DNA from: Candidatus Omnitrophota bacterium
Lineage (GTDB): Bacteria; Omnitrophota; Gorgyraeia; Zapsychrales; Zapsychraceae
Reading direction: 5' to 3'
NCBI GenBank assembly: GCA_029261055.1
Contig: JAJDCA010000065.1
Coordinates: forward strand, 9,581-73,580
DNA length: 64,000 nt
The notes under the pieces: generated by a model
Seen by the model: only the letters and a program-made list of their open reading frames with translations
Databases searched by the model: none
What the model was told of the DNA's origin: nothing
Program-made: the position numbers and the translations under genes
In this document: one piece after another, positions 1,124 to 50,303 of the stretch
How the letters are laid out: every line of letters begins with the position of its first letter
Position numbering within the stretch: position 1 is the stretch's first letter

Positions 1124-1900
1124 ATGGATAAATCAGCTCTCATCTACTGGACAACTCTCACAGGCGTTATAAGTGCCTTAGCTACCGGCCTCGGGGCTAT
1201 TCCTGTACATTTTATCAAAAATAATTCCCCCAAATTAAGGGCCATGGCTTCAGCAGTGGCCGCTGGTATGATGATTTCGGCTTCCGTATTTTCCTTGGCT
1301 CAGGAAGGCATTGCCCTTCAAAGCAAATTTCCCTTGGCCCCATATATTGTCATTCTTGGACTTATCCTCGGAGCTACATTCTTTTATTATTCTGAAAAAA
1401 AAATCTCAGCCCTTAACATAGAAGGAAATCTTTTAACCCATGGATTAACTCAACGTGGATTTCTTATCTTTGCCGCCATGTTTGTTCACTCGATCCCTGA
1501 AGGCATTGCGATTGGCGTGGCCTTTGCCACCGGACATTTTCATTTTGGATTAGTTATGGCCTTAGCTATTGCCGTTCACAATATTCCCGAAGGCATCGCC
1601 ATATCGCTTCCACTTAAAGCAGATAATGTTTCTACAAGAAAATGCGCCGCTGTTTCCATCCTTACAAGCCTTCCTCAACCACTTATGGCAGCTCCTGCGG
1701 CTTTACTAGCCTGGTTTTTTGAACCGCTTCTACCTATTGGATTAGGTTTTGCCGGCGGAGCTATGATCTATTTGGTTGTCAGCGAATTAATTCCAGACGC
1801 TTTGGAAAATGGCGGAAAAAGTCTCACCGCATGGGGCGTTATGATGGGACTTTCAGGAATGCTATTGATTACAACTCTTCTTAATCAGATCCCGTATTAG
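1124..1900 (+). CDS. zupT: ZIP family metal (zinc) transporter
   Basis: 258 aa polytopic membrane protein with the two ZIP signature motifs HSIPEGIAIGVAF and HNIPEGIAI. Confidence 0.8.
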   Translation: MDKSALIYWTTLTGVISALATGLGAIPVHFIKNNSPKLRAMASAVAAGMMISASVFSLAQEGIALQSKFPLAPYIVILGLILGATFFYYSEKKISALNIEGNLLTHGLTQRGFLIFAAMFVHSIPEGIAIGVAFATGHFHFGLVMALAIAVHNIPEGIAISLPLKADNVSTRKCAAVSILTSLPQPLMAAPAALLAWFFEPLLPIGLGFAGGAMIYLVVSELIPDALENGGKSLTAWGVMMGLSGMLLITTLLNQIPY

Positions 1901-4900
1901 GAGTTGTCCAAATTGTTTTTGGACAATCTCTTAATTTGCCTTTCCTTTATCCAAGCATACAATACCGGCACTAAAATTAAATTAGCCAATGTTGCCGTGA
2001 CGAGTCCACCTACCGTTGGGGCCGCCATAGGTTTCATAATTTCAGAACCACTCCCCGTAGAAAACATAACCGGCAGCAAAGCAATGATGGTGGTCATGGT
2101 CGTCATCATAGCAGGCCTGACTCTTAATAATCCAGCCTCGATAACGGTTTGGCGCACATCAGTAATTGTTTTTGGCATTTTTTCTTTAAATAATTGTTCA
2201 AGGGTAGATAAAAGAACCACCGCATTATCAGTGGCAACACCGAACAGAGCGATAAACCCTACCCACACCGCTGTGGAAAAACGAAAATCTAATAAAAACA
2301 AAAGAATAACCCCACCCATTAATGATAACGGAAGTACGCCAGCTAATATGGCCAACACACTAAAATTTTTAAAAGCTATGTAAAGTAAAATAAGAATAAC
2401 CGCCAAGGCTATGATAATGGATGGCAACAACTTTTTACGAGATTCCATCTCCGCCTCAAACTGACCGGACCATGTAATGAAATACCCCGGTGGAATTTGA
2501 ACATTACCTTTTTGAATTTCCTCCTGAACAACTTTTTGCGCATCCGCAACAAAATCTACAAGACCTATTTTACTCTGATCTACACTGACAAAAACACGAC
2601 CATACGGCATAGTATTCTCGGATAAAATCATCGCCGGTCCCGGCACTTTTTTAAACTCTACCAATTGAGCCAAAGGTATCTGCGCTGGCCCCGGACTATT
2701 ACGCCACATCCATCTCGTCGGAACAAATATGCGTTTTAAATCTTCAGGGTTATCCCTTAACTCACGCATGTACCGTACTCTCACAGGATATCGCTCCCGC
2801 CCCTCGACCGTTGTCGTCACATTCATGCCACCAATCCCTGTCATAATTAAATCCTGAATATCCTGCACATGAATACCATAACGCGCGGCTTGTTTACGAT
2901 TAATGTCCATCTCAAAATACGATCGCCCTCCGATACGTTCAGCATACGGTGACACGGCGCCCTCTACCTTGCTCACAATCTTTTCTAACTGAATACCAAT
3001 CTTTTCAATTTCTTTTAAATCCGGCCCGAAAACTTTAATGCCTACCGGCGTCTGAATACCTGTAGCTAACATATCAATACGATTACGAATCGGTTGGGTC
3101 ATAATAGGGCTGACACCAGGCATCTTTGTCTTTTCCTGAATTTCTTCAATGAGCTTGGCCCGTGTCATACCAGGACGCCAATGTTTTTTATCTTTAAGAC
3201 TCACAATGGTTTCAATCATGGCTACTGGCGCAGGGTCAGTTGATGTCTCAGCTCTCCCCAACTTACCAACAACACGTTCCACCTCGGGAAATTCATTTTT
3301 GATAATAATATCTTGTTTCTGCATGATTTCCATCACTTGTGTCAATGAGGCTCCCGGAAGCAAAACCGGCATAAACAAAAGATCCCCTTCATCTAAAGGC
3401 GGCATAAATTCTTGTTTCATAACCGAACCTAATCCCAAACCAAGAACAAAAACACATACAGAAATAATAATAATGATTTTTTTGCATTTCAAAGCCCATT
3501 GAAGAAATGGCCTATAACCTTGATGCAAAAGTTTTGCCATTTTATTATCTTCAATACGAAGCAACCTTCCTCGTAATAAAATATAACACAGCGTCGGTAA
3601 AAGCGTTAAAGCAATGATGGCTGCTCCGATCATGGCAAAAGTCTTTGTAAACGCTAACGGACTAAATAATTTTCCAGCCTGACCTGTTAAAACAAAAACA
3701 GGAACAAAACTCACAATCGTTGTCAGTAAAGCAAACAATACCGGTCGGCCTACTTCTTGAGCAGCCTGAACACATACATCCAAACGCTCTGCGCGCGTTA
3801 AGGTCTGACCTTTTTTTTCTACACTCTTCAAAGCCAATTTTCTGTAAATATTTTCCACCATCACACACCCCGAATCCACCATCACACCAATGGCAATTGC
3901 AATGCCACCCAGAGACATAATATTGGCATCCACACCGAACTGTTTCATTAAAATAAAAGCGATTAAAATTCCAATAGGAAGGACGATAGAAATAATCACA
4001 CTGCCCCAAAAATGAAGAAGAAAAATAAGAATAACAACTACAGTGATTAAAATTTCCTGTGTCAAAGCGGAAGTTAATGTATGAACCGAATCCAAAATCA
4101 ATCTTGTCCTATCATAAAAAGGAACAATTTTTACGCCCTCTGGTAACCCCACAGAAATTTCTTCAATCTTTTCTTTGATCCGCTTAATCACCTCCAAAGG
4201 ATTTTCGCCAAAACGCATTAAGACAACGCCACCCGTCGCTTCGCGCCCTTCTTTATCCAAAGCGCCACGTCGGAAATCAGCCCCCAAGGCAACACCACCA
4301 ATATCTTTAATGCTAATCGGTGTTCCTTCATGCACACCAATCACAATATCTTCAATGTCTTCAATACTCTTAATAAACCCCAAACCACGCACCACATATT
4401 CCAGTCCGCCCTCTTCAAATACCTTTGCCCCTACATCAATGTTAGACATCTTGATCGCCTGTATGACATGAAGTAGACTTACGTTGTAAGCTAATAATTT
4501 ATTTGGATCGACATCAACTTGATATTGTTTGACATACCCTCCAACAGAAGCAACTTCCGATACCCCTTCGACACTTGTTAACTGAAACCGGACATACCAA
4601 TCTTGAATTGAACGAAGTTCATCTAATCCATAATCCTCACCCTCCACGGTATACCAAAATATCTGTCCTAAAGCGGTGGCATCCGGCCCCAAGGTAACCA
4701 CCGCATCCGCGGGCATATCCTTCTTCGCAAAATCCAACCGCTCAAGCACGCGCGTCCGCGCCCAATAATAATCTGTGCCATCCTCAAAGATCATATTAAC
4801 CAGGCCAAACCCAAAAGCCGCAGAGGAACGGACAACCTTAACTTTCGGCGTCCCCATCAAGCCCGTCGTCAAAGGATAAATCACCTGATCTTCTACATCC

Positions 4901-5076
4901 TGCGGACTCCGCCCCGGCCACTCTGCATACACAATCACCTGGAGCTCCCCAATATCAGGAATCGCATCAATCGGCGTCTGCCGCATAGCAGAGAAACCAA
5001 AGACAACAAGAAGCGCAAATGTCGTCAGCACCAAGAACCTGTTTTTAAGACAGCTTTTTATAATTGTGTTGATCAT
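1897..5076 (-). CDS. cusA: heavy-metal efflux RND pump, CusA/CzcA family
   Basis: 1059 aa. The N-terminus MINTIIKSCLKNRFLVLTTFALLVVFG plus twelve-TM RND architecture is typical of the HME-RND family. It is the last gene of the csoR-tolC-cusB operon. Confidence 0.9.
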   Translation of the reverse strand: MINTIIKSCLKNRFLVLTTFALLVVFGFSAMRQTPIDAIPDIGELQVIVYAEWPGRSPQDVEDQVIYPLTTGLMGTPKVKVVRSSAAFGFGLVNMIFEDGTDYYWARTRVLERLDFAKKDMPADAVVTLGPDATALGQIFWYTVEGEDYGLDELRSIQDWYVRFQLTSVEGVSEVASVGGYVKQYQVDVDPNKLLAYNVSLLHVIQAIKMSNIDVGAKVFEEGGLEYVVRGLGFIKSIEDIEDIVIGVHEGTPISIKDIGGVALGADFRRGALDKEGREATGGVVLMRFGENPLEVIKRIKEKIEEISVGLPEGVKIVPFYDRTRLILDSVHTLTSALTQEILITVVVILIFLLHFWGSVIISIVLPIGILIAFILMKQFGVDANIMSLGGIAIAIGVMVDSGCVMVENIYRKLALKSVEKKGQTLTRAERLDVCVQAAQEVGRPVLFALLTTIVSFVPVFVLTGQAGKLFSPLAFTKTFAMIGAAIIALTLLPTLCYILLRGRLLRIEDNKMAKLLHQGYRPFLQWALKCKKIIIIISVCVFVLGLGLGSVMKQEFMPPLDEGDLLFMPVLLPGASLTQVMEIMQKQDIIIKNEFPEVERVVGKLGRAETSTDPAPVAMIETIVSLKDKKHWRPGMTRAKLIEEIQEKTKMPGVSPIMTQPIRNRIDMLATGIQTPVGIKVFGPDLKEIEKIGIQLEKIVSKVEGAVSPYAERIGGRSYFEMDINRKQAARYGIHVQDIQDLIMTGIGGMNVTTTVEGRERYPVRVRYMRELRDNPEDLKRIFVPTRWMWRNSPGPAQIPLAQLVEFKKVPGPAMILSENTMPYGRVFVSVDQSKIGLVDFVADAQKVVQEEIQKGNVQIPPGYFITWSGQFEAEMESRKKLLPSIIIALAVILILLYIAFKNFSVLAILAGVLPLSLMGGVILLFLLDFRFSTAVWVGFIALFGVATDNAVVLLSTLEQLFKEKMPKTITDVRQTVIEAGLLRVRPAMMTTMTTIIALLPVMFSTGSGSEIMKPMAAPTVGGLVTATLANLILVPVLYAWIKERQIKRLSKNNLDNS

Positions 5077-5093
5077 TCTGCATCCTTATTTCA

Positions 5094-5250
5094 AAGAAGT
5101 AGAGAGGTAAAGGTGCAAGAAGCAGAGAAAAATAAAAAAAAACTTCATACAAACTTCTACTTTCTTGCCTCTTACATCTCTACTTCTCTGCTTCTCTGCT
5201 TCTTACTTCTCTACCTCTTGCTTCTTACACCTCTGCCTCTTACTTCCCCA
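5094..5250. repeat. CT-rich degenerate octamer tandem-repeat element (copy A). A purine-rich head (AAGAAGTAGAGAGGTAAAGGTGCAAGAAGCAGAGAAAAA) and A-tract are followed by about 12 units of CTTCTCTG/CTTCTTAC
   Basis: Direct reading of the cusB-cusA intergenic region. The purine head is largely the reverse complement of repeat units, giving long hairpin potential. The same architecture recurs at 46745-46903 and partially at 7701-7733. Confidence 0.5.
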
Positions 5251-6414
5251 TCAATGCTTATGCCCCGAGCCTTTCATCGATCCCTTTGGTTCAGCGGGCT
5301 CCAACGCTCCCCCATAAGACGAGGACACAACACCTGTAATCTGACTCTGCGAATCAATAAGAAAATTTCCTTTTGTCACGACATGCTCACCTTCTTTTAA
5401 ACCTTTCAAAACCGGATAATATTTTAATAGCTGATCCGCATGACTGATCGATTCAGGCCCAATCTCCACAAGCCTTCCTTCAAATTTCTCTTTTCCCTTG
5501 ACCACCCATACAATCCTTCTCCGCCCGGTATCTAACAAAGCGCTTTTAGGAATGGAAAGCACATCTTCATTGCCGTCGGGATCAGTGTATTGACTCATGA
5601 TTTCAACATCCACATACATTTCCGGCTTAAGTTTTTCATCAGGATTTTCCACAAGAGCACGAAATCGTACAGAACGCGTTAAAGGATCTACAACAGGATT
5701 GATGGATACTACCTTACCAAAGAACTCTTCTCCCGCGAAGCTGAGTGGACGCACTTTTACATAAGAATCTTTCTTGACCCAATTCAACTCATACTCAAAA
5801 ACATTTCCATAAATCCACATTCTTTTACCAGGAAGGATTAAACTTTCTTCGACTTCCTGAGTTTGCTCCAATACATTAATTTGATCTTCATTTAAACCCA
5901 GCAACAACAATTTACGCTTCGAAGAACTAATCATTGAAGCTGCCCGGTCAATAATTTCGACAATTTCACCCTGCGTAGCCTTGTAATAGGCCTTAACCGC
6001 AGAGATAAATTCATCCTGTGCAATAGCGAGTTGTGGATCATACGCCACACGTCCTACCGCACGAATTTCTTTAAAAAGATGACGTTTAACAACTTGTTCC
6101 GTTTTAATACCTGCCAATTTTAATTCTCTCGCCTTAATTTCAACCTTACTAATAACATTTGCATCAAATTTCTCTTCTACCATTCCCCCCTTTTTAACCG
6201 GAGTTAACGGCATAAAACAAATCGGACATTTGGTATCACCCTTTGCATAATTTTCCGGTGTTACTTTAACGCTAGGGTGCATACCACAGGTATAGTGGGA
6301 CACTTCTTCCACATGCTCAGGCTGATGACTTTCTTGAGAAGATACTTGCGCAAATCCATCTACTGCAAAAGGTCCCATCAACAAAATGACCATCATAAAA
6401 TTTACTAATTTCAT
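5251..6414 (-). CDS. cusB: RND efflux membrane fusion protein (CusB-like) with an N-terminal heavy-metal-binding motif
   Basis: A signal peptide starts at the internal Met (MKLVNFMMVILLMGPFAVDGFA), with RBS GGGAGG upstream. The HYTCGMHP motif matches the metal-binding YHYTCPMHP-type motif. It also has a His-rich region and a GSGHKH C-terminus. Biotin-lipoyl-like and beta-barrel MFP regions are present. The ORF track extends the start to 6486. Confidence 0.85.
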   Translation of the reverse strand: MKLVNFMMVILLMGPFAVDGFAQVSSQESHQPEHVEEVSHYTCGMHPSVKVTPENYAKGDTKCPICFMPLTPVKKGGMVEEKFDANVISKVEIKARELKLAGIKTEQVVKRHLFKEIRAVGRVAYDPQLAIAQDEFISAVKAYYKATQGEIVEIIDRAASMISSSKRKLLLLGLNEDQINVLEQTQEVEESLILPGKRMWIYGNVFEYELNWVKKDSYVKVRPLSFAGEEFFGKVVSINPVVDPLTRSVRFRALVENPDEKLKPEMYVDVEIMSQYTDPDGNEDVLSIPKSALLDTGRRRIVWVVKGKEKFEGRLVEIGPESISHADQLLKYYPVLKGLKEGEHVVTKGNFLIDSQSQITGVVSSSYGGALEPAEPKGSMKGSGHKH

Positions 6415-6427
6415 TTTATCCTCCCTA

Positions 6428-7714
6428 TCATAATTTCTCTCCAACAATTCTTTCCAAATACGCGATGGACTTATGATAATCCACAACCGCCTTGTAATAC
6501 GCTAGGCGTGTCTGTAAATACGTCCTTTCCGTATCCAACCAATCTAAAAAACTAATATTTCCCGTTTCAAATCCCGTTTGCGAAGAGTCAAACGCCTGCT
6601 GAGCCTGAGGCATCAAAGCTGTTTCATAAAGAGAAATAATATCGCGGTAAGTCGTAATTTTAAAATACATATCTTGCGCCTCAAAGGTAATCTGATTCCT
6701 AACACCCTTTTGACTTTCCTGTGCTGCTTTTAAAGATGATGTTTTTTCATTAAACAAGGCCTTTAATTTGCCAAACCATATTGGCACATTAACCGAAACT
6801 TTGGCTAGCCAAGCATCCTGGCCGTCATCAATAGAGGTCGTTGTCCCTCCGCCAATTTCAATAAATTCTGCCCCCAAAGTGAAATCTGGAAAATAATTCA
6901 TACGTGCTAAAGATTTTTCATATACAGCCCTTTCAACAAAAAAGTCCGCCGCCATCAACTCTTGTCGGGAATTCTGAGCTTTATTAACAACATCCTCCAT
7001 GGTATAAATAAAATCCTGATATTCTGCCTCTGTGATCTTTGCGATAATGACATTTGGTTTCCGGTTAAGCAGACTATTCATCCTCGCGGCTAGACTTTGC
7101 CTATTTTGTTTAAATAAAAATAATTTCCGGATAATATTAGAAAGCTCGACCTGCGCCTTGATCACGTCTTGCTGCGGAACAAGATTGGATTCATATTTTC
7201 GCTGGGCTACTTTTTCCAGCTTCTCCAAAATCGCCTTTTCTTCTTCATTAATCTCTACCGCCTTATCCACCCAGAACAAATCATAATACACAAACTTTAT
7301 ATCCTTAATGATTTCATTCTTAACTGCTTCGTATTGCTCCTTAAATATTTGCGCCTGCTTCGACTGCACTTTACCTTTCAGCCTTCGTTTCCCAGGAAAT
7401 GGGATTTTTTGCGCAAGGCCATATTTTTGCTTCTGCGGACCAACCCTTGTCTGCACCTCTTCCCCAAAATACCCATAACTGGCAACAGGGTCATCCAGAC
7501 TTTTCGCACTTTTAATTTTATATTCAGCCGTTTTCCATTTATGGTAGGCCTGTTGGATATTAGGATTATGATCAACAGCTTTCTCAATATAGGAATGAAG
7601 ACTTTCTTGCGCGGCCACTGAGATAGGCAAACACAAAAGAATAAAAACAAAAACAACCCATCTAAAACTTTGCTTATTAATTTTTAAAATTTGTTTGTAT
7701 CTTGTTTCTTGCAT
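6428..7714 (-). CDS. TolC-family outer membrane efflux protein (CusC-like)
   Basis: About 428 aa from the Met at 7714 (MQETRYKQ...) with signal peptide VVFVFILLCLPISVAAQ, preceded by RBS GAGGT. The body has the two-repeat OEP architecture. An alternative upstream start is at 7756. Confidence 0.8.
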   Translation of the reverse strand: MQETRYKQILKINKQSFRWVVFVFILLCLPISVAAQESLHSYIEKAVDHNPNIQQAYHKWKTAEYKIKSAKSLDDPVASYGYFGEEVQTRVGPQKQKYGLAQKIPFPGKRRLKGKVQSKQAQIFKEQYEAVKNEIIKDIKFVYYDLFWVDKAVEINEEEKAILEKLEKVAQRKYESNLVPQQDVIKAQVELSNIIRKLFLFKQNRQSLAARMNSLLNRKPNVIIAKITEAEYQDFIYTMEDVVNKAQNSRQELMAADFFVERAVYEKSLARMNYFPDFTLGAEFIEIGGGTTTSIDDGQDAWLAKVSVNVPIWFGKLKALFNEKTSSLKAAQESQKGVRNQITFEAQDMYFKITTYRDIISLYETALMPQAQQAFDSSQTGFETGNISFLDWLDTERTYLQTRLAYYKAVVDYHKSIAYLERIVGEKL

Positions 7715-7748
7715 CTTGCACCTTACCTCTTTTTTAAAGAATACCTTA

Positions 7749-8036
7749 TTACCCACTCTTTCTAAACGTCTTTAACAATTTTAATACTTCTTCTATTTTC
7801 TTTTTTTTCTCAGGTTCTGATTTTCCTTCAAAAGCCGTCTTAACGCAAGTATCCAAATGCTTTTCTAAAATATCACTCTGTACCCTTCCGACAGCACTGG
7901 ACACAGCGCTCAACTGCGTTAAAATATCCACACAATAACGCTTATCCTCGATCATTTTCTGAATGCCACGCACTTGCCCTTCAATACGTCTTAAAGCATC
8001 CAACTTCATTTTATGACTCGGTGACTTTTTCATCAC
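7749..8036 (-). CDS. csoR: CsoR/RcnR-family metal-sensing transcriptional repressor
   Basis: 95 aa protein with the DUF156/CsoR signature [13 protein letters not shown] and conserved Cys/His positions. It is the first gene of the cus-type efflux operon. Confidence 0.85.
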
Positions 8037-22853: not shown

Positions 22854-23375
22854 TTATCTAGCATGAAATCCAATAGATCCTTTAGATTTCGTAGGTGGCT
22901 CTAGCAGGCGCTTGATCGCTTCGAAAACAATTTGGAATTGGTGATCATATTTTTTCTCCATCTTTTCAATCTTCTCACGCAAGTCGCGGTGCTCGATCAT
23001 CAGTTCACGGAGTTTTGCGAAGGTGCGCATGATTTGAATATTGACCTGAATAGCTCGCTTACTGTTGAGTACACTGGAAAGCATGAGAATACCATACTCT
23101 GTAAAGGCATAGGGTAATTTGCGTGGGCCTCCCCAACTTGAAGTGCCAAAATGGCACTTCAAGTTTGCAACCTCTTGTTGTGTAAGGGGTAATAAGAAAT
23201 CTACTGGAAACCGATCTTTATTACGGCGTACCTGTCGTGTTAAATGTTTTGTTTCCACACCATAAAGCTCTGCCAAATCTTTATCTAACATGACCTTCCT
23301 CCCACGAATCAACAAAATTTTGTTTTGGATGATTTCTTCGGGAACTATTTTGGTTATTATTTTCTTTGTTGTCAT
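22854..23375 (-). CDS. ORF6N-domain (KilA-N-related) protein, paralog A
   Basis: N-terminal LIRGRKVMLDKDLAELYGVETKHLTRQVRRNKDRFPVDF matches the ORF6N domain, with a C-terminal coiled coil. It contains a perfect 13+3+13 palindrome at 23136-23164. Confidence 0.7.
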   Translation of the reverse strand: MTTKKIITKIVPEEIIQNKILLIRGRKVMLDKDLAELYGVETKHLTRQVRRNKDRFPVDFLLPLTQQEVANLKCHFGTSSWGGPRKLPYAFTEYGILMLSSVLNSKRAIQVNIQIMRTFAKLRELMIEHRDLREKIEKMEKKYDHQFQIVFEAIKRLLEPPTKSKGSIGFHAR

Positions 23376-23408
23376 TTTTTAATCCTTTCATAAATTATTT
23401 AGCATCAC

Positions 23409-24968
23409 TCACCGCCCCCAGCTTCGATCCAGACTCCGATACTGTATCGCCTCGGCGATGTGGTCGGGTTGGATGCTTGATTGACCGTCCAAATCGGCAA
23501 TCGTGCGGGCGACTTTGAGGATTTTGTCGTGGGCACGGGCGGAAAGGGTGAGTTCATCAATAGCTCTCCTGAGCAAATCTTTGCCTTCATCAGTCAAGGC
23601 ACAATGTGTCCGAATTCTTTTTTGATTTAAATGGGCATTTGTAAATATTTTCTCTGGTGGTGCCAAAAGATTAATTTCGTCTTGAGATCTTTTTTGCTGA
23701 ACCTCACGCGCCGCAACAGTTCTCTTTTTGATAGCTGCCGAAGCCTCTCCTCTATTACCGACAGTCATTAATTCCACAGACTTCAGCGAAGGTACTTCTA
23801 AATGAATATCAATACGATCAAGCAAAGGGCCGGATATTTTGGACATATAGCGTTGAATTTGATTAGGATTGCAATGACACTCTTTCGCTGGATCTGAATA
23901 CCAACCACACGGACAAGGATTCATCGTCGCAATCAGCATAAAACGTGAAGGAAAACGAACGGTTTGGCTGGCACGAGAAATAGTTACCTGATGATCTTCT
24001 AAAGGCTGCCGTAAAGATTCCAATACATTGCGGCTAAACTCAGGCAATTCATCCAAAAACAAAATCCCATTATGCGCCAACGTCACTTCACCCGGCCGGG
24101 GCATTGACCCGCCGCCAACCAAAGCCACATCGGAACTTGTATGATGCGGTGAACGAAAAGGACGCTGATGAATAATCCCACGATTAGCCTGTACCAATCC
24201 CACCACTGAATGAATTTTAGTAGTTTCCAGAGCCTCATCGAGTATCATATCAGGCAATATCGTCAACATCCGTCTGGCAAGCATGGTCTTACCGCTTCCC
24301 GGAGGGCCTATCAAAAGAACATTGTGTCCTCCAGCCGCTGCAATTTCCAAACCCCGTTTAACATGCGCCTGCCCTTTAACCTCGGAAAAATCTGTATCGT
24401 AAAAATTAACCTTATTCCACAAAGATTCCATATTAACTTTAAAAGGCTCAATAATCGTAGGGTTTTGAAAAAAATACACGACTTCGTTGAGCGTCTTCGC
24501 CGGATAAACGGAAACATTCTTAGTCACAGCCGCCTCTGCAGCATTAGCCAATGGAAGAATCATTCCTTGAAATTGATCTGTTTCAAGAGACATGGTAATA
24601 GGCAAAACCCCTTTTATGGGTTGAATACGTCCATCTAAAGAAAGCTCACCCAATAGGACATAATTTTTCAAAGGCGTAATATCAATTTGTTCACTGGCTG
24701 CAAGAATCCCCAAAGCGATCGCTAAATCAAAAGAAGGCCCTTCCTTTTTAACATCCGCCGGAGAAAGGTTCACCGTAATCCGTCCCATTGGAAAATCGTA
24801 ACCACTATTCTTAATCGCCGAACGTACCCTCTCCTTACTTTCCCGCACCGCACTGTCTGGCAAACCTACAATATGCACACATGGCAATCCCCGCGACACA
24901 TGCACCTCAATAATAATCGGATAGGCATCCAATCCGGCAATACTATAACTACATACTTTGGCTAACAT
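23409..24968 (-). CDS. comM: YifB/ComM-family Mg-chelatase-like AAA+ ATPase
   Basis: 519 aa with an N-terminal Lon-like domain, Walker A GPPGSGKT, sensor motifs, a Cys cluster CPCGWYSD..CHC and a C-terminal Mg_chelatase_C region. Confidence 0.9.
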   Translation of the reverse strand: MLAKVCSYSIAGLDAYPIIIEVHVSRGLPCVHIVGLPDSAVRESKERVRSAIKNSGYDFPMGRITVNLSPADVKKEGPSFDLAIALGILAASEQIDITPLKNYVLLGELSLDGRIQPIKGVLPITMSLETDQFQGMILPLANAAEAAVTKNVSVYPAKTLNEVVYFFQNPTIIEPFKVNMESLWNKVNFYDTDFSEVKGQAHVKRGLEIAAAGGHNVLLIGPPGSGKTMLARRMLTILPDMILDEALETTKIHSVVGLVQANRGIIHQRPFRSPHHTSSDVALVGGGSMPRPGEVTLAHNGILFLDELPEFSRNVLESLRQPLEDHQVTISRASQTVRFPSRFMLIATMNPCPCGWYSDPAKECHCNPNQIQRYMSKISGPLLDRIDIHLEVPSLKSVELMTVGNRGEASAAIKKRTVAAREVQQKRSQDEINLLAPPEKIFTNAHLNQKRIRTHCALTDEGKDLLRRAIDELTLSARAHDKILKVARTIADLDGQSSIQPDHIAEAIQYRSLDRSWGR

Positions 24969-25522
24969 TATTTGCTCTCCTTTTTAGTCCTCGGGGGATG
25001 AAATCCAATAAGTTTCTTACGCTTTACCGGGGGATCGATTAAGCATTTGATTGCATCAAAAACTACTTTGAATTGATAATCATATTTTTCCTCCATCACT
25101 TCGATCTTTCGCTTCAAATCTTTATGAGTTACCATCAACTCTCTAAACTTTACGAATGTTTTCATGATTTGAATATTGACCTGAATAGCTCGCTTGCTAT
25201 TTAAAACACTTGAACGCATCAGGATGCCGTGTTCCGTGAAGGCAGATGGAAGTTTACGCGTACCTCCCCAACTTGAAGTCACAAATTGTGACTTCAAGTT
25301 TGAAACCTCTTCCCTTGTAAGAAGAAACATAAATTCGACTGGAAACCGACCCTGATTACGTTTTACAGCTTGATTAAGTACTTTTGTATCAACACCATAA
25401 AGTATTGCTAAATCTTTATCCAACATGACTTTCTGCCCTCTTATGAATAGAATCTTAATTTCTATCATGTCTTGAGCAACAACACTTGCAAAAGTATTTT
25501 TCTCTTTAACCATACAGATCAT
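24968..25522 (-). CDS. ORF6N-domain (KilA-N-related) protein, paralog B
   Basis: FIRGQKVMLDKDLAILYGVDTKVLNQAVKRNQGRFPVEF. It shares identical 30-nt blocks with paralog A at the DNA level and contains the equivalent palindrome at 25268-25296. Confidence 0.7.
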   Translation of the reverse strand: MICMVKEKNTFASVVAQDMIEIKILFIRGQKVMLDKDLAILYGVDTKVLNQAVKRNQGRFPVEFMFLLTREEVSNLKSQFVTSSWGGTRKLPSAFTEHGILMRSSVLNSKRAIQVNIQIMKTFVKFRELMVTHKDLKRKIEVMEEKYDYQFKVVFDAIKCLIDPPVKRKKLIGFHPPRTKKESK

Positions 25523-27293: not shown

Positions 27294-27381
27294 ACGTAAA
27301 TATCCCTTATTTTTAATAATACCTATTACTTCAAGTATAACATTTTATCTTCTTATTGAGTAGGGAGCGCAAAAACAAAAA

Positions 27382-27420
27382 AATAACGGCCACTTTATTT
27401 TAAAAAAAGTGGCCGTTATT
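27382..27420 (-). terminator. rho-independent terminator (12-bp stem AATAACGGCCAC / GTGGCCGTTATT) downstream of the repeat-protein gene
   Basis: A perfect 12-bp stem with a 15-nt loop. On the minus-strand transcript it is followed by a U-run (plus-strand AAAAACAAAAAAA at 27371-27381). It probably also insulates the kinase gene. Confidence 0.6.
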
Positions 27421-27454
27421 TCTTTACTGTATGTAGATCTACCCATCACCTAAT

Positions 27455-28291
27455 TTATTTATTTTTTCTCGCACGATGCTTCGCCTTCAACCCCTTCCGC
27501 TGGTGATTAACATTTTTACGTATTTGTTGCTTAGCCTCCCGCTGAGATGAACCAGGATTATTCGCCCGATATTTATCCGCGCCACTTTTAAACTTTTCTC
27601 GCTTTCCCTGACGATTATCTCGGCGATCTTGACGTTTTTCTTGACGATTTTCACGATTCTCGCTCCGATTTCCCTGACGATCATCTCGCCGATCTTGACG
27701 TCTTTCCTGACGACCTTCTCGATTTTCACTCCGATTTCCCTGACGATTATCTTGGCGATCTTGACGTCTTTCCTGACGGCCTTCTCGATTTTCACTCCGA
27801 TTCCCCTGACGATCATCTCGGCGATCTTGACGTCTTTCCTGACGACCTTCTCGATTTTCACTCCGATTCCCCTGACGATCATCTCGGCGATCTTGACGTC
27901 TTTCCTGACGGCCTTCTCGATTTTCACTCCGATTTCCCTGACGATCATCTCGACGATCTTGACGTCTTTCCTGACGGTCATCTCGATGTTCTTGCCTTTT
28001 TTCCTGACGGTCTTCCTTATTACCTTGTTTATGCTCTTTAGCCTCTTCTTTAAAACCTTTCATCTTTTCACGAATTTCTTCAGGGGACAACCCTTGATCT
28101 TTATACTCTTCAATGGATGATTTCCTTCTGGATTGAAAATCACTCCACCACTGCTTATTTTCTTCTTGTTCCTGATCTCTATACTCTCTAAATTCTGATC
28201 TCGAATCTACCTCACCCGTAGAATCTTCTTGCGCCCAAACAGCAGGTACTAATACGATACTTAGAAGTACTACTAGTGTTAGCTTATTCAT
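27455..28291 (-). CDS. secreted highly charged tandem-repeat protein (about five 22-aa REGRQERRQDRRDDRQGNRSEN units)
   Basis: Signal peptide MNKLTLVVLLSIVLVPAVWAQ, followed by an R/Q/D/E/N-rich low-complexity body. The repeats are encoded by a 66-bp tandem array. Confidence 0.6.
   Translation of the reverse strand: MNKLTLVVLLSIVLVPAVWAQEDSTGEVDSRSEFREYRDQEQEENKQWWSDFQSRRKSSIEEYKDQGLSPEEIREKMKGFKEEAKEHKQGNKEDRQEKRQEHRDDRQERRQDRRDDRQGNRSENREGRQERRQDRRDDRQGNRSENREGRQERRQDRRDDRQGNRSENREGRQERRQDRQDNRQGNRSENREGRQERRQDRRDDRQGNRSENRENRQEKRQDRRDNRQGKREKFKSGADKYRANNPGSSQREAKQQIRKNVNHQRKGLKAKHRARKNK
27597..27990. repeat. 66-bp tandem DNA repeat, about 6 copies, inside the repeat-protein CDS
   Basis: The unit start CTCGATTTTCAC recurs at 27717, 27783, 27849 and 27915 with an exact 66-bp period. 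It generates the spurious overlapping ORFs 27487..27981(-) and 27629..28120(+). Confidence 0.8.
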
Positions 28292-28394: not shown

Positions 28395-28991
28395 TTATCT
28401 TTTTTTCCTATGCTCTCGCTGTAATTTCTTATGCGTTCTCTTTTTTTGCTTCACATCTTTTTTCCGTTCTGCTGATGATTTTTTTAACCGATTATGCTTT
28501 TGCCGAAGTTGCTGCTTTTGTTCCGGAGAAAATTTTTGCCATTTTTCCTTTTTTTGTTTTAACCTATGCCTTTCATCTGGCTTGGTTTGACGAAAACGTT
28601 TATGTTCTTTAATAATACGCTGACGCTCTTCCGGTGTTGTTTTTTTCCACCGTTCAAACTTTTTCTCAACCATCTTACGCCGATGCTTCGGCAAATCATT
28701 ATGTTTTTTCCAATTCTTTTGAATACGAGACTTCTCTTCTTTAGAAAAATTTTTAAACCGGTCATAATTCTTACGTATTTTAGATTTTTCTTCAGAACTA
28801 AGATTTTTCCATTCTTTCCATCGTTGTCGTAATGCTTCTTTTTGTTCCGGCGCTAAATTACGCCATTTCTTCTGCGCAGCCTCTTCAGAGCTCATTTCCT
28901 GGGCTTGAACTTCTAAAACAATACCCACACCCAATAAATTTGCCGTTAGTAAACAGCTTAAAATAATTACCAAATATTTCTTATTATTCAT
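28395..28991 (-). CDS. secreted, extremely basic repeat protein, DUF3106-like
   Basis: A signal/TM peptide, then repeated W-x-x-L-(S/A)-P-E-(Q/E)-K-x-x-(L/I)-R-x-(R/K/N)-(W/Y) units rich in K and R. An 8-nt overlap with the upstream gene indicates translational coupling within the sigma operon. Confidence 0.55.
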   Translation of the reverse strand: MNNKKYLVIILSCLLTANLLGVGIVLEVQAQEMSSEEAAQKKWRNLAPEQKEALRQRWKEWKNLSSEEKSKIRKNYDRFKNFSKEEKSRIQKNWKKHNDLPKHRRKMVEKKFERWKKTTPEERQRIIKEHKRFRQTKPDERHRLKQKKEKWQKFSPEQKQQLRQKHNRLKKSSAERKKDVKQKKRTHKKLQREHRKKR

Positions 28992-42836: not shown

Positions 42837-42919
42837 AAAAACCCTCCTTTTCCTATTTTCCTACTATTTCCTATTTTCCAACTTAATAATAACATGAAAA
42901 TACAGTTGTTGCAAATTTT

Positions 42920-46015: not shown

Positions 46016-46066
46016 TTTGCTATTATTGTTTTTTTAACAAACCTGTAACCATTGAAGGAGGTTTTT

Positions 46067-46291
46067 ATGAGTGACAATAATCACCCTTATGTTCAAGAAA
46101 TGGAACCCGGTAAATATGCCTGGTGTTCCTGTGGTAAATCACAAAACGAACCATTTTGTGACGGCGCCCACAAAGGGTCTGACTTAGCCCCTATCGTCGT
46201 TGAAATAACCGAAAAACAAAAAGTTGCCTGGTGCGGATGCAAAAAAAGTAAGAATGCGCCTTACTGCGATGGAAGCCATAGTCAACTTTAA
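46067..46291 (+). CDS. CDGSH iron-sulfur domain protein (two CDGSH motifs)
   Basis: CSCGKSQNEPFCDGAHK and CGCKKSKNAPYCDGSH. The start is at the ATG with RBS AAGGAGG; the ORF track uses an upstream TTG. Confidence 0.75.
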   Translation: MSDNNHPYVQEMEPGKYAWCSCGKSQNEPFCDGAHKGSDLAPIVVEITEKQKVAWCGCKKSKNAPYCDGSHSQL

Positions 46292-46293
46292 AA

Positions 46294-46542
46294 ATGTCCA
46301 AAAAAAAATTTCCACACGCTCAAAATGCCCCGTTTGTCCTGGAAATGAAACCCGGACGATATGCCTGGTGCTCCTGTGGCGAATCTCAAAAACAACCTTT
46401 TTGCGACGGTCGCCACGGGGAAACCGGCATGTACCCTGTCATTGAAGAAATCACTGAAACAAAAACCATTACCTGGTGCGGATGCAAATGTAGCGAAAAA
46501 GGCGCCTTTTGTGATGGATCGCATGTAAAAAGAGGTACGTGA
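46294..46542 (+). CDS. CDGSH iron-sulfur domain protein, tandem paralog
   Basis: CSCGESQKQPFCDGRHG and CGCKCSEKGAFCDGSH. It is about 50% identical to the upstream paralog. Confidence 0.75.
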   Translation: MSKKKFPHAQNAPFVLEMKPGRYAWCSCGESQKQPFCDGRHGETGMYPVIEEITETKTITWCGCKCSEKGAFCDGSHVKRGT

Positions 46543-46547
46543 TCCGT

Positions 46548-46726
46548 TATTTAAAAAACTTATCCCCCACCGCCCAATTCTCCCCGGAAACTTCATCAAT
46601 CACCAAATACGTATGCTCTTTAGGTTTATTCGCAACGTTTAAAAGCGTATCGGAAAATTGTTTAGCGATTTCATCCTTCTGTTCGCTGGTAAGCGTCCCC
46701 ACAAGTTTCAAATTAATGTATGGCAT
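46548..46726 (-). CDS. 4-oxalocrotonate tautomerase family protein (59 aa; not in the ORF track)
   Basis: Minus-strand translation gives MPYINLKLVGTLTSEQKDEIAKQFSDTLLNVANKPKEHTYLVIDEVSGENWAVGDKFFK. It has the Pro-1 tautomerase fold signature, and an RBS GGAG lies 5 nt upstream of the ATG. Confidence 0.65.
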
Positions 46727-46744
46727 TCATGTCTCCTTTATTTA

Positions 46745-46903
46745 AAGAAGCAGAGGTGCAAGAGACAAGATGCAGAGAAAAAAACAAAAAATTAATTAAT
46801 TTTTTTACTTCTCTACCTCTTACTTCTCTGCTTCTTACCTCTCTACTTCTTGCCTCTCTGCATCTTGCATCTCTACTTCTTTACCCCCTACTTCCCCCTC
46901 TCC
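46745..46903. repeat. CT-rich degenerate octamer tandem-repeat element (copy C), overlapping the metW stop codon
   Basis: A purine head AAGAAGCAGAGGTGCAAGAGACAAGATGCAGAGAAAAAAA, then an A/T tract, then about 12 CTTCTCTAC/CTTCTTACC-type units. The architecture matches 5094-5250. Confidence 0.5.
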
Positions 46904-47472
46904 AACAAATACACGCCTGCATTAGCAAATAAATTTGGCCTGACTAAAACTTTTTTATTCCCCACAATACCGATTTCTTGCAAAATTTTTATGCTATTGT
47001 CCCGGCAAAAATAACGAAAATCTTTTAGACTTAAAAATCGCAAGTTAGGCGTATCGTACCATTGGTAAGGCAGTTCTTTGGTAATCGGCACACGACCGCG
47101 AAAGAAAATTTGAAACCGGGCACGAATGTGGGTGAAATTCGGAATAACAACAATAACCTTTTTCCCGACACGAAACGATTCTAGAATTACTCTCCGTGGA
47201 TTAAGCACCTGCTGAAGACTTTCACTTAAAATAACGTAATCAAACCGTTTATTCGAATAATCCGCCAACCCTGAATCAATATTTTCATGGGATACCGTCA
47301 AGCCTTTGGCAATACATTCGTAAATGGCTTTTTCATCCAATTCAATACCTGTACCGGTACAACTTTTCTCTTTAATAAGCAGCGCCAACAGACTTCCGTC
47401 TCCGCAGCCAAGATCAAGCAGTTTGGACTGTGGCTTAACAAAATCTAAAATAATTTTATGATCTAATCTCAC
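46888..47472 (-). CDS. metW: methionine biosynthesis protein MetW
   Basis: 194 aa with a SAM-MTase-like LDLGCGDGSLL motif. It lies immediately downstream of metX, overlapping it by 1 nt. Confidence 0.85.
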   Translation of the reverse strand: MRLDHKIILDFVKPQSKLLDLGCGDGSLLALLIKEKSCTGTGIELDEKAIYECIAKGLTVSHENIDSGLADYSNKRFDYVILSESLQQVLNPRRVILESFRVGKKVIVVIPNFTHIRARFQIFFRGRVPITKELPYQWYDTPNLRFLSLKDFRYFCRDNSIKILQEIGIVGNKKVLVRPNLFANAGVYLLERGK

Positions 47473-50193: not shown

Positions 50194-50303
50194 AATAAAA
50201 ATTTTGCATGTTTAAGGTGAAGGGGTATCCTTGAATGGGAGGATCCACACTGGGCGGAGGGGCCCAGTCAAGGATACCCCTTCATCTATGCAAAATTTTT
50301 ATT
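50194..50303. repeat. GC-rich nested palindromic element: 16-bp core stem GAAGGGGTATCCTTGA / TCAAGGATACCCCTTC around an inner hairpin CTGGGC-GGAGGG-GCCCAG, flanked by an outer inverted repeat AAAATTTTGCAT / ATGCAAAATTTT
   Basis: Direct reading: core arms at 50219-50234 and 50268-50283, outer arms at 50194-50209 and 50288-50303. A further 10-bp palindrome GGAGATCTCC lies about 60 bp to the left (approximately 50141-50150). It sits between the miaB stop and the DUF423 start. Confidence 0.5.

Follow-up and report, generated by a model that had tools for sequence, protein, structure and literature searches.

We analyzed a 64,000-nucleotide (nt) stretch of Candidatus Omnitrophota contig JAJDCA010000065.1 (hereinafter, the window) and found that the 174-nt spacer between the cusB-like and cusA-like genes of its cus operon is filled by a noncoding hairpin element whose two arms are inverted arrays of degenerate 7- and 8-nt units. 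A second full copy lies between metW and a tautomerase gene in the same window. Comparison with related operons showed that both copies are insertions of this Omnitrophota lineage, each placed precisely on the stop codon/Shine-Dalgarno (SD) junction of two formerly abutting genes. The cusB-cusA spacer is, accordingly, an insertion that replaced a tight abutment or overlap and not a conserved copper-regulatory device. The element itself is an inverted repeat-array hairpin resembling the short tandemly repeated repetitive (STRR) hairpins and the 23S rRNA intervening sequences (IVSs), here present in Omnitrophota and without a gene. Taken by itself, the locus is a modest result; its wider value lies in the link that its repeat units make to the protein genes of 23S rRNA IVSs.

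Two inverted repeat-array hairpins in the window

The element is about 160 to 170 nt in length, and its first copy (copy A, window positions 5091 to 5249) has the minus strand as the gene sense. In the order of the mRNA, the spacer consists of the cusB TGA stop, a GA-rich array, a loop, a CU-rich arm, GAAATAAGGATGCAGA, and the cusA ATG (Table 1). The array, which is ~85% purine across 96 nt, reads from 5' to 3' as GGGGAAG TAAGAGG CAGAGGTG TAAGAAG CAAGAGG TAGAGAAG TAAGAAG CAGAGAAG CAGAGAAG TAGAGATG TAAGAGG CAAGAAAG TAGAAG. Within it, 8-mers of the form YAGAGARG alternate with 7-mers of the form YAAGARG, producing a 15-nt superperiod, and Tandem Repeats Finder reported periods of 8, 15, and 31 at positions 5162 to 5243. 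The units of the opposing 3' arm are TTCTCTG CTTCTTG CACCTTTA CCTCTCTA CTTCTTTG; read on the plus strand, this arm is the purine "head" of the initial annotation, which had correctly laid out the locus as a head (5094 to 5132), an A-tract or short spacer (5130 to 5153), and a CT-rich array (5154 to 5249). The same annotation had counted about 12 octamer units; the tandem arrangement stands, and the units number 13 and are mixed 7- and 8-mers rather than uniform octamers.

The second full copy (copy B, 46744 to 46898) matches copy A in orientation and in the order of its parts. The last three metW codons and the stop (TAG, 46888 to 46890) fall within the first units of its array, and Tandem Repeats Finder reported periods of 15 and 30 at positions 46805 to 46894. 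Common to the two copies are the orientation, the number of units (13), a T-rich loop, GGGGAAGTA as the terminal unit, and, within the short arm, the irregular motif GGTGCAAGA. Their mean column identity is 84%, a value inflated by low complexity; gapless matches between the arrays amount to 64 to 83%, and the order of the units differs. Both copies were recovered base for base in two independent Logan assemblies, which come from a single run and sample. A degenerate 23-nt pattern describing an 8-7-8 triplet of units, allowing ≤2 mismatches, matched the window five times, in every case within copies A and B, against an expectation of 0 (no match in 100 shuffles). The 64 kb contain two full copies and one partial site, and none was found in a further 8 kb.

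In terms of potential secondary structure, the arms of copy A are complementary over 27 nt at 85% in a repeat search and show 30 matches in 36 columns of a neutral alignment. For both copies, the core complementarity covers 27 to 36 nt at ~85%, which corresponds to the complementary termini of IVSs. In the gene sense, the predicted RNA folds reach −58.4 kcal/mol for copy A (z = −3.1) and −66.9 kcal/mol for copy B (z = −6.5), and the folds of the corresponding single-stranded DNAs reach −20.6 (z = −3.2) and −24.3 kcal/mol (z = −5.6), respectively. Competing pairing registers are numerous (frequency of the minimum-free-energy [MFE] structure, 0.0003). The stems are longer in RNA because of G-U pairs and the pairing of the U-tract with the purine array, by which the stem of copy A is lengthened in the fold prediction. 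A hairpin of more than 40 bp, previously proposed for either DNA or RNA, is predicted only at the RNA level. The existence of copy B and the predicted mRNA folds uphold the proposal that the element is dispersed and that, in the cus mRNA, it folds into a hairpin immediately ahead of the ribosome-binding site of cusA. The cusA SD and AUG are unpaired in these folds and lie outside the main stem, with the SD positioned 5 nt beyond its end; hence, the suggested modulation of cusA translation is not predicted to occur by occlusion.

The RNA is more stable in the sense than in the antisense direction (−54 versus −41 kcal/mol), with 15 versus 2 G-U pairs in the MFE structure. We considered this G-U excess as a possible sign of selection at the RNA level and dropped the idea, as the neutral arm alignment gave symmetric mismatches (2 versus 2 and 2 versus 1). 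An intrinsic terminator was likewise rejected: scans for sigma-70-type promoters and for terminators recovered no site at either copy. A search of the whole window against Rfam at the gathering threshold gave no match, and there is no rRNA in the window. Two ordinary palindromes were seen elsewhere, one at 50215 to 50287 (25-nt arms, 92%, 23-nt loop) and one at 27377 to 27425 (24 nt, near perfect, with A/T runs on both sides in the manner of a bidirectional terminator), which suggests that this genome has conventional hairpins too.

A third site with related units, site C, is a short GA-rich array that follows the csoR stop and leads into the tolC-like gene, with the sequence AAGAGG TAAGGTG CAAGATG CAAGAAA CAAGATA CAAAC (four to five GA-rich units). 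It contributes AAGAGGTAAGG, a likely SD, as well as the ATG at 7714 and the codons for MQETRYKQ. The irregular 9-mer GGTGCAAGA is common to site C and both short arms and occurs four times in the window, compared with 0.43 expected; moreover, site C can be aligned with copy B across the short arm and loop of the latter, the AAAAATTAAT tail included. The earlier observation that the head motif recurs at the tolC-like start is thereby confirmed, and from these sequence matches it is plausible, rather than proven, that site C is a partial copy that came to serve the tolC-like gene as its initiation region. The start chosen by the gene caller is a GTG at 7756, with an 8-nt overlap with csoR, in which case the site C motif would be coding. 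When translated from the ATG at 7714, the tolC-like protein has an N-terminal region ahead of its hydrophobic segment (~18 residues) that is longer than in four orthologs, the extra codons being those of the GA-rich motif. At another minus-strand gene, a short purine-rich 5'-leader array was seen, with four TTTTCCTA-type units (TAGGAAAA in the gene sense; 42840 to 42884) directly upstream of the SD (GGAGGG) and ATG.

Empty sites in relatives and insertion at stop codon/SD junctions

Among named proteins, Cu(I)/Ag(I) efflux adaptors of Omnitrophota are the nearest relatives of the window's CusB, and both CusB and MetW show 68 to 80% identity to their best named relatives, which belong to Candidatus Omnitrophota/Omnitrophica. 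In five orthologous cus operons (loci L009/L010, L011, L012/L013, and L014), the element is absent and cusB and cusA either overlap by 10 nt or are separated by 11 to 21 nt. Two of the four junctions printed (L011 and L012) have the form CAT TAA GGAG N6-11 ATG, in which the stop overlaps the SD. The window junction reads CAT TGA T, followed by the element (GGGGAAG...CTTCTTTGAAA) and then by TAAGGATGCAGAATG, so that the element separates the last sense codon from the old TAA plus SD; the TAAGGA at the cusA start is the ancestral stop-SD junction (CAT-TAAGGAG) of the relatives. A comparable situation was found for copy B. The gene order nadA-metX-metW-tautomerase-DAO is kept in relatives, and in three related loci (L041 to L043) the metW-tautomerase gap measures 11 nt (GAAAAATAAAGGAGAGCGCGATG) and holds no element. 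In the window, ...GGAGA is followed by the element (GGGGGAAGTAG...CTTCTTTA) and by AATAAAGGAGACATGAATG, and the AAATAAAGGAG ahead of the tautomerase start is the ancestral metW stop-SD junction of the relatives. Thus, a TAA(A)GGA motif is retained at the 3' edge of the element at both window junctions.

As the orthologous junctions lack the element, copies A and B are lineage-specific insertions. In each case, the upstream gene now ends at a stop codon brought by the element, and the old TAA and SD stayed with the downstream gene. A comparison of the flanks with the empty sites, as had been recommended in the initial annotation, revealed no target-site duplication at either copy. The annotation's suggestion of a mobile or expansion-prone element fits both this absence of the copies from orthologous junctions and the length variation, by 15-nt steps between samples, of an array of the same family (see below). 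In contrast, its suggestion of dedicated cus or copper regulation does not hold, given the related cus operons without the element and the presence of the element at the unrelated metW-tautomerase junction.

A sister Omnitrophota lineage (L038 to L040) carries a 105-nt hairpin at the same metW-tautomerase junction (L038:4598-4705), with an unlike family of units (TTCGTAT/AGCGTAT, then ATACGAA). Hence, the metW junction has been colonized at least two times by hairpins of the same kind and different sequence. Between samples, one arm of this sister hairpin shows two A/G differences, and the downstream start is GTG or ATG depending on the sample.

Table 1. Features of the window that bear on the hairpin elements (all coordinates are window positions)
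Feature	Positions	Strand	Remark
cusA-like RND (resistance-nodulation-division) pump gene	1897-5076	minus	PF00873
cusA SD and ATG	5074-5087	minus	SD AAGGA 5083-5087; ATG 5074-5076
Copy A, 3' arm	5091-5129	minus	~5 CU-rich units complementary to array
Copy A, loop	5130-5153	minus	24 nt; TTTGTATGAAG then T-tract (TTTTTTTTTATTT)
Copy A, 5' arm	5154-5249	minus	GA-rich array, 13 units; begins 1 nt past cusB stop
cusB stop codon	5251-5253	minus	TGA; relatives have TAA overlapping SD instead
cusB-like membrane-fusion protein gene	5251-6393	minus	PF25954
tolC-like outer-membrane factor gene	6428-7714 or 7756	minus	
Site C	7695-7733	minus	short GA-rich array between csoR stop and tolC-like gene
csoR-like repressor gene	7749-8009	minus	
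Tautomerase-family gene	46547-46726	minus	59 aa; PF01361; downstream of copy B
Tautomerase gene start	46724-46743	minus	AAATAAAGGAGACATGA and ATG
Copy B, 3' arm	46744-46779	minus	~5 CU-rich units: TTCTCTG CATCTTG TCTCTTG CACCTCTG CTTCTTT
Copy B, loop	46780-46806	minus	AAAAAAATTAATTAATTTTTTGTTTTT
Copy B, 5' arm	46807-46898	minus	GA-rich array, 13 units
metW	46888-47472	minus	PF07021; upstream of copy B

The unit family elsewhere, PF05635 cassettes, and other repeats

Matches to the unit pattern are rare: species-representative genomes totaling 596 Gb yielded 7 loci, and a metagenome collection yielded 22. Those in L020, L023/L031, and L036 were set aside since, judged from their sequence alone, they appear to lie within coding or unrelated sequence. 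The closest look-alike, L018, has the layout of the window copies, with a short loop between a long GA array and a short CT arm and then an SD and an ATG; a gene for an IS200/RAYT-like Y1 transposase (RAYT, REP-associated tyrosine transposase; REP, repetitive extragenic palindrome) lies 400 nt downstream of the hairpin. Upstream of this hairpin, L018 also has a CACGTWY heptamer array with an inverted partner; together, they bracket a palindrome holding CATTGCGAGCG...CGCAATGACG. These upstream repeats and the transposase gene occupy L018:100-420 and 1058-1759. A perfect and GC-richer hairpin in L024/L033 starts with GGGGAAG directly past a stop codon, and in L006, L007/L016, L028, and L032 several distinct arrays of 7- to 8-nt units adjoin one another. 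Telomere-like arrays (GGCATAGGGCGTATGGC... and TTAGGGCTAGGG...) adjoin GA arrays in contigs of Planctomycetales-labeled metagenome-assembled genomes (MAGs; L007:380-440 and L016:2890-2950) and in a metagenome contig (L032, last 60 nt, minus-strand view). Wherever the flanking frames were readable, the GA-rich strand was usually in the sense of the upstream gene and started within ~30 nt of its stop; the heptamer repeats of Xanthomonas and Nostoc are likewise found close to the upstream stop codon (PMC4692102).

In three environmental loci among these, L002 (an Omnitrophota MAG), L027, and L034, a PF05635 gene is preceded by a GA array and followed by an inverted CT array, the whole lying between codirectional genes. 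The gene product matches the 23S rRNA-intervening sequence protein family PF05635 with E values of 1e-32 to 1e-36, as well as TIGR02436 (four helix bundle protein) and, more weakly, Avd. The 5' arms of these cassettes are arrays of the TAGAGAAG/TAAGAAG type with the complement at the 3' side, and they have the 15-mer TAGAGAAGTAAGAAG in common with copy A; the arms of the window copies thus belong to the unit family of bona fide cassettes. The cassettes are found between nifU-like and iscS-like genes (L027) and between cheA and cheC (L034 and L064 to L072). In the predicted fold of L027, the first GA array and the distal CT array pair into an outer stem around the open reading frame (ORF), and the second GA array and the proximal CT array form an inner hairpin similar to copies A and B. 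Were the two directly repeated GA arrays of L027 to recombine, the product would, by inference, be exactly a gene-less hairpin. Past a GGAGACC repeat, L034 has a second short array of GA units (AAGAAGTAAAGAAGCAAAGAAGCAGAGAAG; L034:5150-5260, minus strand), apparently at the 3' end of another gene.

The cassette between cheA and cheC was recovered on nine contigs from different samples. Neither the four-helix-bundle protein nor, on the contigs that extend to it, the CT arm varies among them. The GA array occurs as three alleles that differ by 15-nt superunits or in unit composition, with an altered C-terminal tail of CheA. This shows directly that arrays of the GA unit family expand and contract in natural populations.

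A protein search of a plasmid collection recovered 48 records, mostly from Nostocales, and ten loci were inspected. In 7 of 9 cyanobacterial plasmid loci, a purine-rich array of short units lies upstream of the PF05635 gene and its complement lies downstream; the arm units include GCAGGGA, GCAGAGGA, ACAGGTG, and GGGTGTA. The Azospirillum locus L051 is a true 23S rRNA IVS (Rfam LSU, E = 3e-179) with arms of the GGACAGA type, and a cassette between moxR and a DUF58 gene has inverted arms of the GAAGTCN type. Overall, inverted short-unit arms were seen in 12 of the 14 distinct PF05635 cassettes inspected. On plasmids of Anabaena sp. 90 (L050:1-1136) and Pseudanabaena galeata (L052:1-1157), a four-helix-bundle gene with short-unit arrays is situated between cas6 and cas4 of a CRISPR-Cas operon. 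In three of the ten plasmid loci (L048, L049, and L053), the cassette adjoins a tyrosine recombinase/integrase gene, which may be due to chance or hint at a means of movement.

Several repeats of other kinds were noticed in the window. A 66-nt unit is repeated ~6 times (27603 to 28009; 92% matches) and encodes RQERRQDRRDDRQGNRSENREG repeats within a 278-aa ORF (27455 to 28291) that has a hydrophobic, signal peptide-like N terminus; the next gene (28395 to 28991) is likewise a K/R/E-rich ORF with a similar N terminus. Adjacent paralogous segments 2,135 nt apart (22863 to 25480; 71 to 75% identity over ~450 nt) probably represent a tandem gene duplication. Two tandem paralogous genes for CDGSH-type zinc fingers (46052 to 46542; 79 and 82 aa; 76% DNA identity over 93 nt) lie a short distance downstream of copy B and are encoded on the opposite strand.

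Origin of the element and comparison with known systems

We lean, if not strongly, toward interpreting copies A and B as noncoding "solo stems," i.e., inverted arrays of 7/8-nt units of the same class as the arms of the PF05635/TIGR02436 (S23p) cassettes and similar to STRR hairpins. What is claimed for the window copies is a solo stem related to the cassette and not a cassette. The gene-less form could have arisen from a full cassette via recombination between direct GA arrays; alternatively, the hairpin could be the basic unit, with the gene as its passenger. In the polycistronic mRNA, the arms would form a long imperfect duplex with a core of ~35 bp, extended by G-U pairs. By analogy with the 23S rRNA IVSs, this stem probably serves as a substrate for RNase III or as a barrier to exonucleases. 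Cleavage or blockage at the duplex would uncouple the cusB and cusA segments, ending their ancestral close coupling and leaving the cusA SD and AUG free, and the length of the array would drift by replication slippage in steps of 7, 8, or 15 nt. A passenger, selfish or neutral, that is tolerated by its host is a likelier description of the element than a regulator of cus under selection.

A broader proposition, which we put forward tentatively and regard as doubtful, is that PF05635 genes with inverted short-repeat arrays constitute one widespread class that invades operon stop/SD junctions and 23S rRNA loops from cyanobacteria to Omnitrophota, that excision by RNase III explains their tolerance, and that the STRR arrays and gene-less hairpins are their arms or relics. 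If true, it would offer a common and testable answer to the 35-year-old questions of the origin of STRR sequences and IVSs; if the link holds, STRR heptamer arrays, rRNA IVSs, and the large paralogous families of "four helix bundle proteins" would be joined.

Several observations weigh against the kinship of the window copies with the cassettes or temper it. A tblastn search with the L002 protein detected no PF05635 gene or remnant in the window (the loops of the copies measure 24 to 27 nt), and we infer descent from a cassette only from shared units, layout, and context. The units are of low complexity, and hence the similarity of the arrays could be convergent. Two plasmid cassettes (L046 and L052) carry direct rather than inverted arrays. 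The notion of a dispersed family rests on two full copies in 64 kb. Finally, it is the U-tract, rather than any bias among the core-arm mismatches, that makes the sense and antisense RNAs differ in stability, and this difference is no proof of selection for RNA structure.

Other explanations were weighed against the same evidence. An unlikely one is a simple sequence repeat born in place, without relation to the cassettes and neutral, by slippage growth from the local stop-SD heptamer (TAAGGAG to TAAGARG). The ancestral junctions TAAGGAG and TAAAGGAG are indeed close to the TAAGARG unit, arrays of the GA unit family do vary in length between samples, and heptamer simple sequence repeats are overrepresented in the intergenic DNA of several bacteria, often ≤50 nt from the upstream stop (PMC4692102). 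However, slippage generates neither an inverted CU-rich arm nor a T-rich loop, and it leaves without explanation the irregular features common to both loci (GGTGCAAGA, the terminal GGGGAAGTA, and the T-tract), the use of the same units around PF05635 genes elsewhere, and the different-unit hairpin of the sister lineage at the same junction.

We consider it improbable that the element was selected as a cis-regulatory RNA for the cus operon. In that scenario, the GA array would supply SD-like decoys or a ribosome standby site, pair with the anti-SD-like CU arm, and tune the CusB:CusA ratio or the copper response. The tripartite Cus system requires more CusB than CusA, the array contains several GAGG/AAGAGG motifs, and the stem stops 5 nt ahead of the cusA SD. 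Set against this are the five orthologous operons in which cusB and cusA abut or overlap with no element between them, the same element between metW and the tautomerase gene, the unpaired SD and AUG, and the lack of an Rfam family match.

Equally little probability attaches to a miniature inverted-repeat transposable element, or an element of the REP or REPIN (REP doublet forming hairpins) type, mobilized in trans by an IS200/RAYT-like Y1 transposase or a similar enzyme. Its size (~160 nt), the terminal inverted symmetry, and the insertion relative to orthologs would fit such an element, as would the transposase gene near the L018 hairpin; yet, besides lacking target-site duplications, the window copies are diverged and differ in unit order, the pattern is very rare in genomes, and tblastn found no IS200/RAYT-like transposase gene in the window or in related loci other than L018. 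A DNA-level role (a homopurine/homopyrimidine triplex or cruciform, protein-binding iterons, or a C-rich Rho-loading site on antisense transcripts) is very improbable despite the purine bias of the array, the significant z scores of the single-stranded DNA folds, and the C-rich, G-poor antisense RNA, in that the purine strand is broken by pyrimidines every 7 to 8 nt, promoter-like and terminator-like sites are lacking at the copies, nothing connects the arrays to a binding protein, and the layout of the cassette arms is retained in rRNA, for which the stem is known to function as RNA (PMC4990558).

The solo stems can be compared with four known systems. REPs are palindromes of 20 to 40 nt with unique sequence that occur in hundreds of near-identical copies and are linked to RAYTs (PMC3116915). 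Like REPs, the related bacterial interspersed mosaic elements, and REPINs of enterobacteria and pseudomonads, the window copies are intercistronic imperfect palindromes that are dispersed, noncoding, and selfish looking, and that could act as barriers to mRNA decay and cause differential expression within operons; unlike REPs, their arms are tandem unit arrays, the copies are diverged, and there is no RAYT in the window. The GGGAATC repeats of Xanthomonas and the GGGGAYT repeats of Nostoc, which form G-quadruplexes (PMC4692102), are also intergenic heptamer arrays, mostly between codirectional genes and near the upstream stop, and, as here, they sometimes occur as inverted pairs; they vary in length between strains (PMC4692102), as arrays of the GA unit family do between samples. 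In contrast to these, the GA units of the window have no G-runs apart from the terminal GGGG.

The closest parallels are with STRR hairpins and IVSs. An STRR hairpin lies between hupS and hupL in Nostoc/Anabaena and has been suggested to affect the stability of the transcript or the coupling of translation (PMC2670836). As in cyanobacterial STRR sequences, the window copies consist of degenerate ~7-nt units (rather than perfect heptamers) in tandem, head to tail, that form an intergenic hairpin within an operon and start near the upstream stop. They differ in that the host is, from its CusB and MetW homologs, a member of Omnitrophota and not a heterocystous cyanobacterium, the units are GA rich and alternate between 7 and 8 nt with a 15-nt superperiod, and the arms are asymmetric (13 versus 5 units). 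The stems of rRNA IVSs are cut by RNase III, their origin is considered unresolved, and the termini of the Coxiella IVS contain GACAGAT heptamers (PMC4990558). With the 23S rRNA IVSs that contain the S23p ORF (PF05635/TIGR02436), the window copies share inverted complementary termini, a long stem, and termini built of short degenerate repeats. Unlike these IVSs, they have no ORF in the loop and are sited not in helix 25 or 45 of 23S rRNA but in mRNA, in the spacers between protein-coding genes of operons, and excision by RNase III is known for IVSs and putative for the window copies. A search of one literature library returned no account of repeats in Omnitrophota, of four-helix-bundle genes flanked by arrays, or of mRNA elements resembling IVSs, which does not by itself prove novelty. 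By their architecture, copies A and B stand beside the STRR hairpins and the IVS termini as hairpins made of inverted short-unit arrays.

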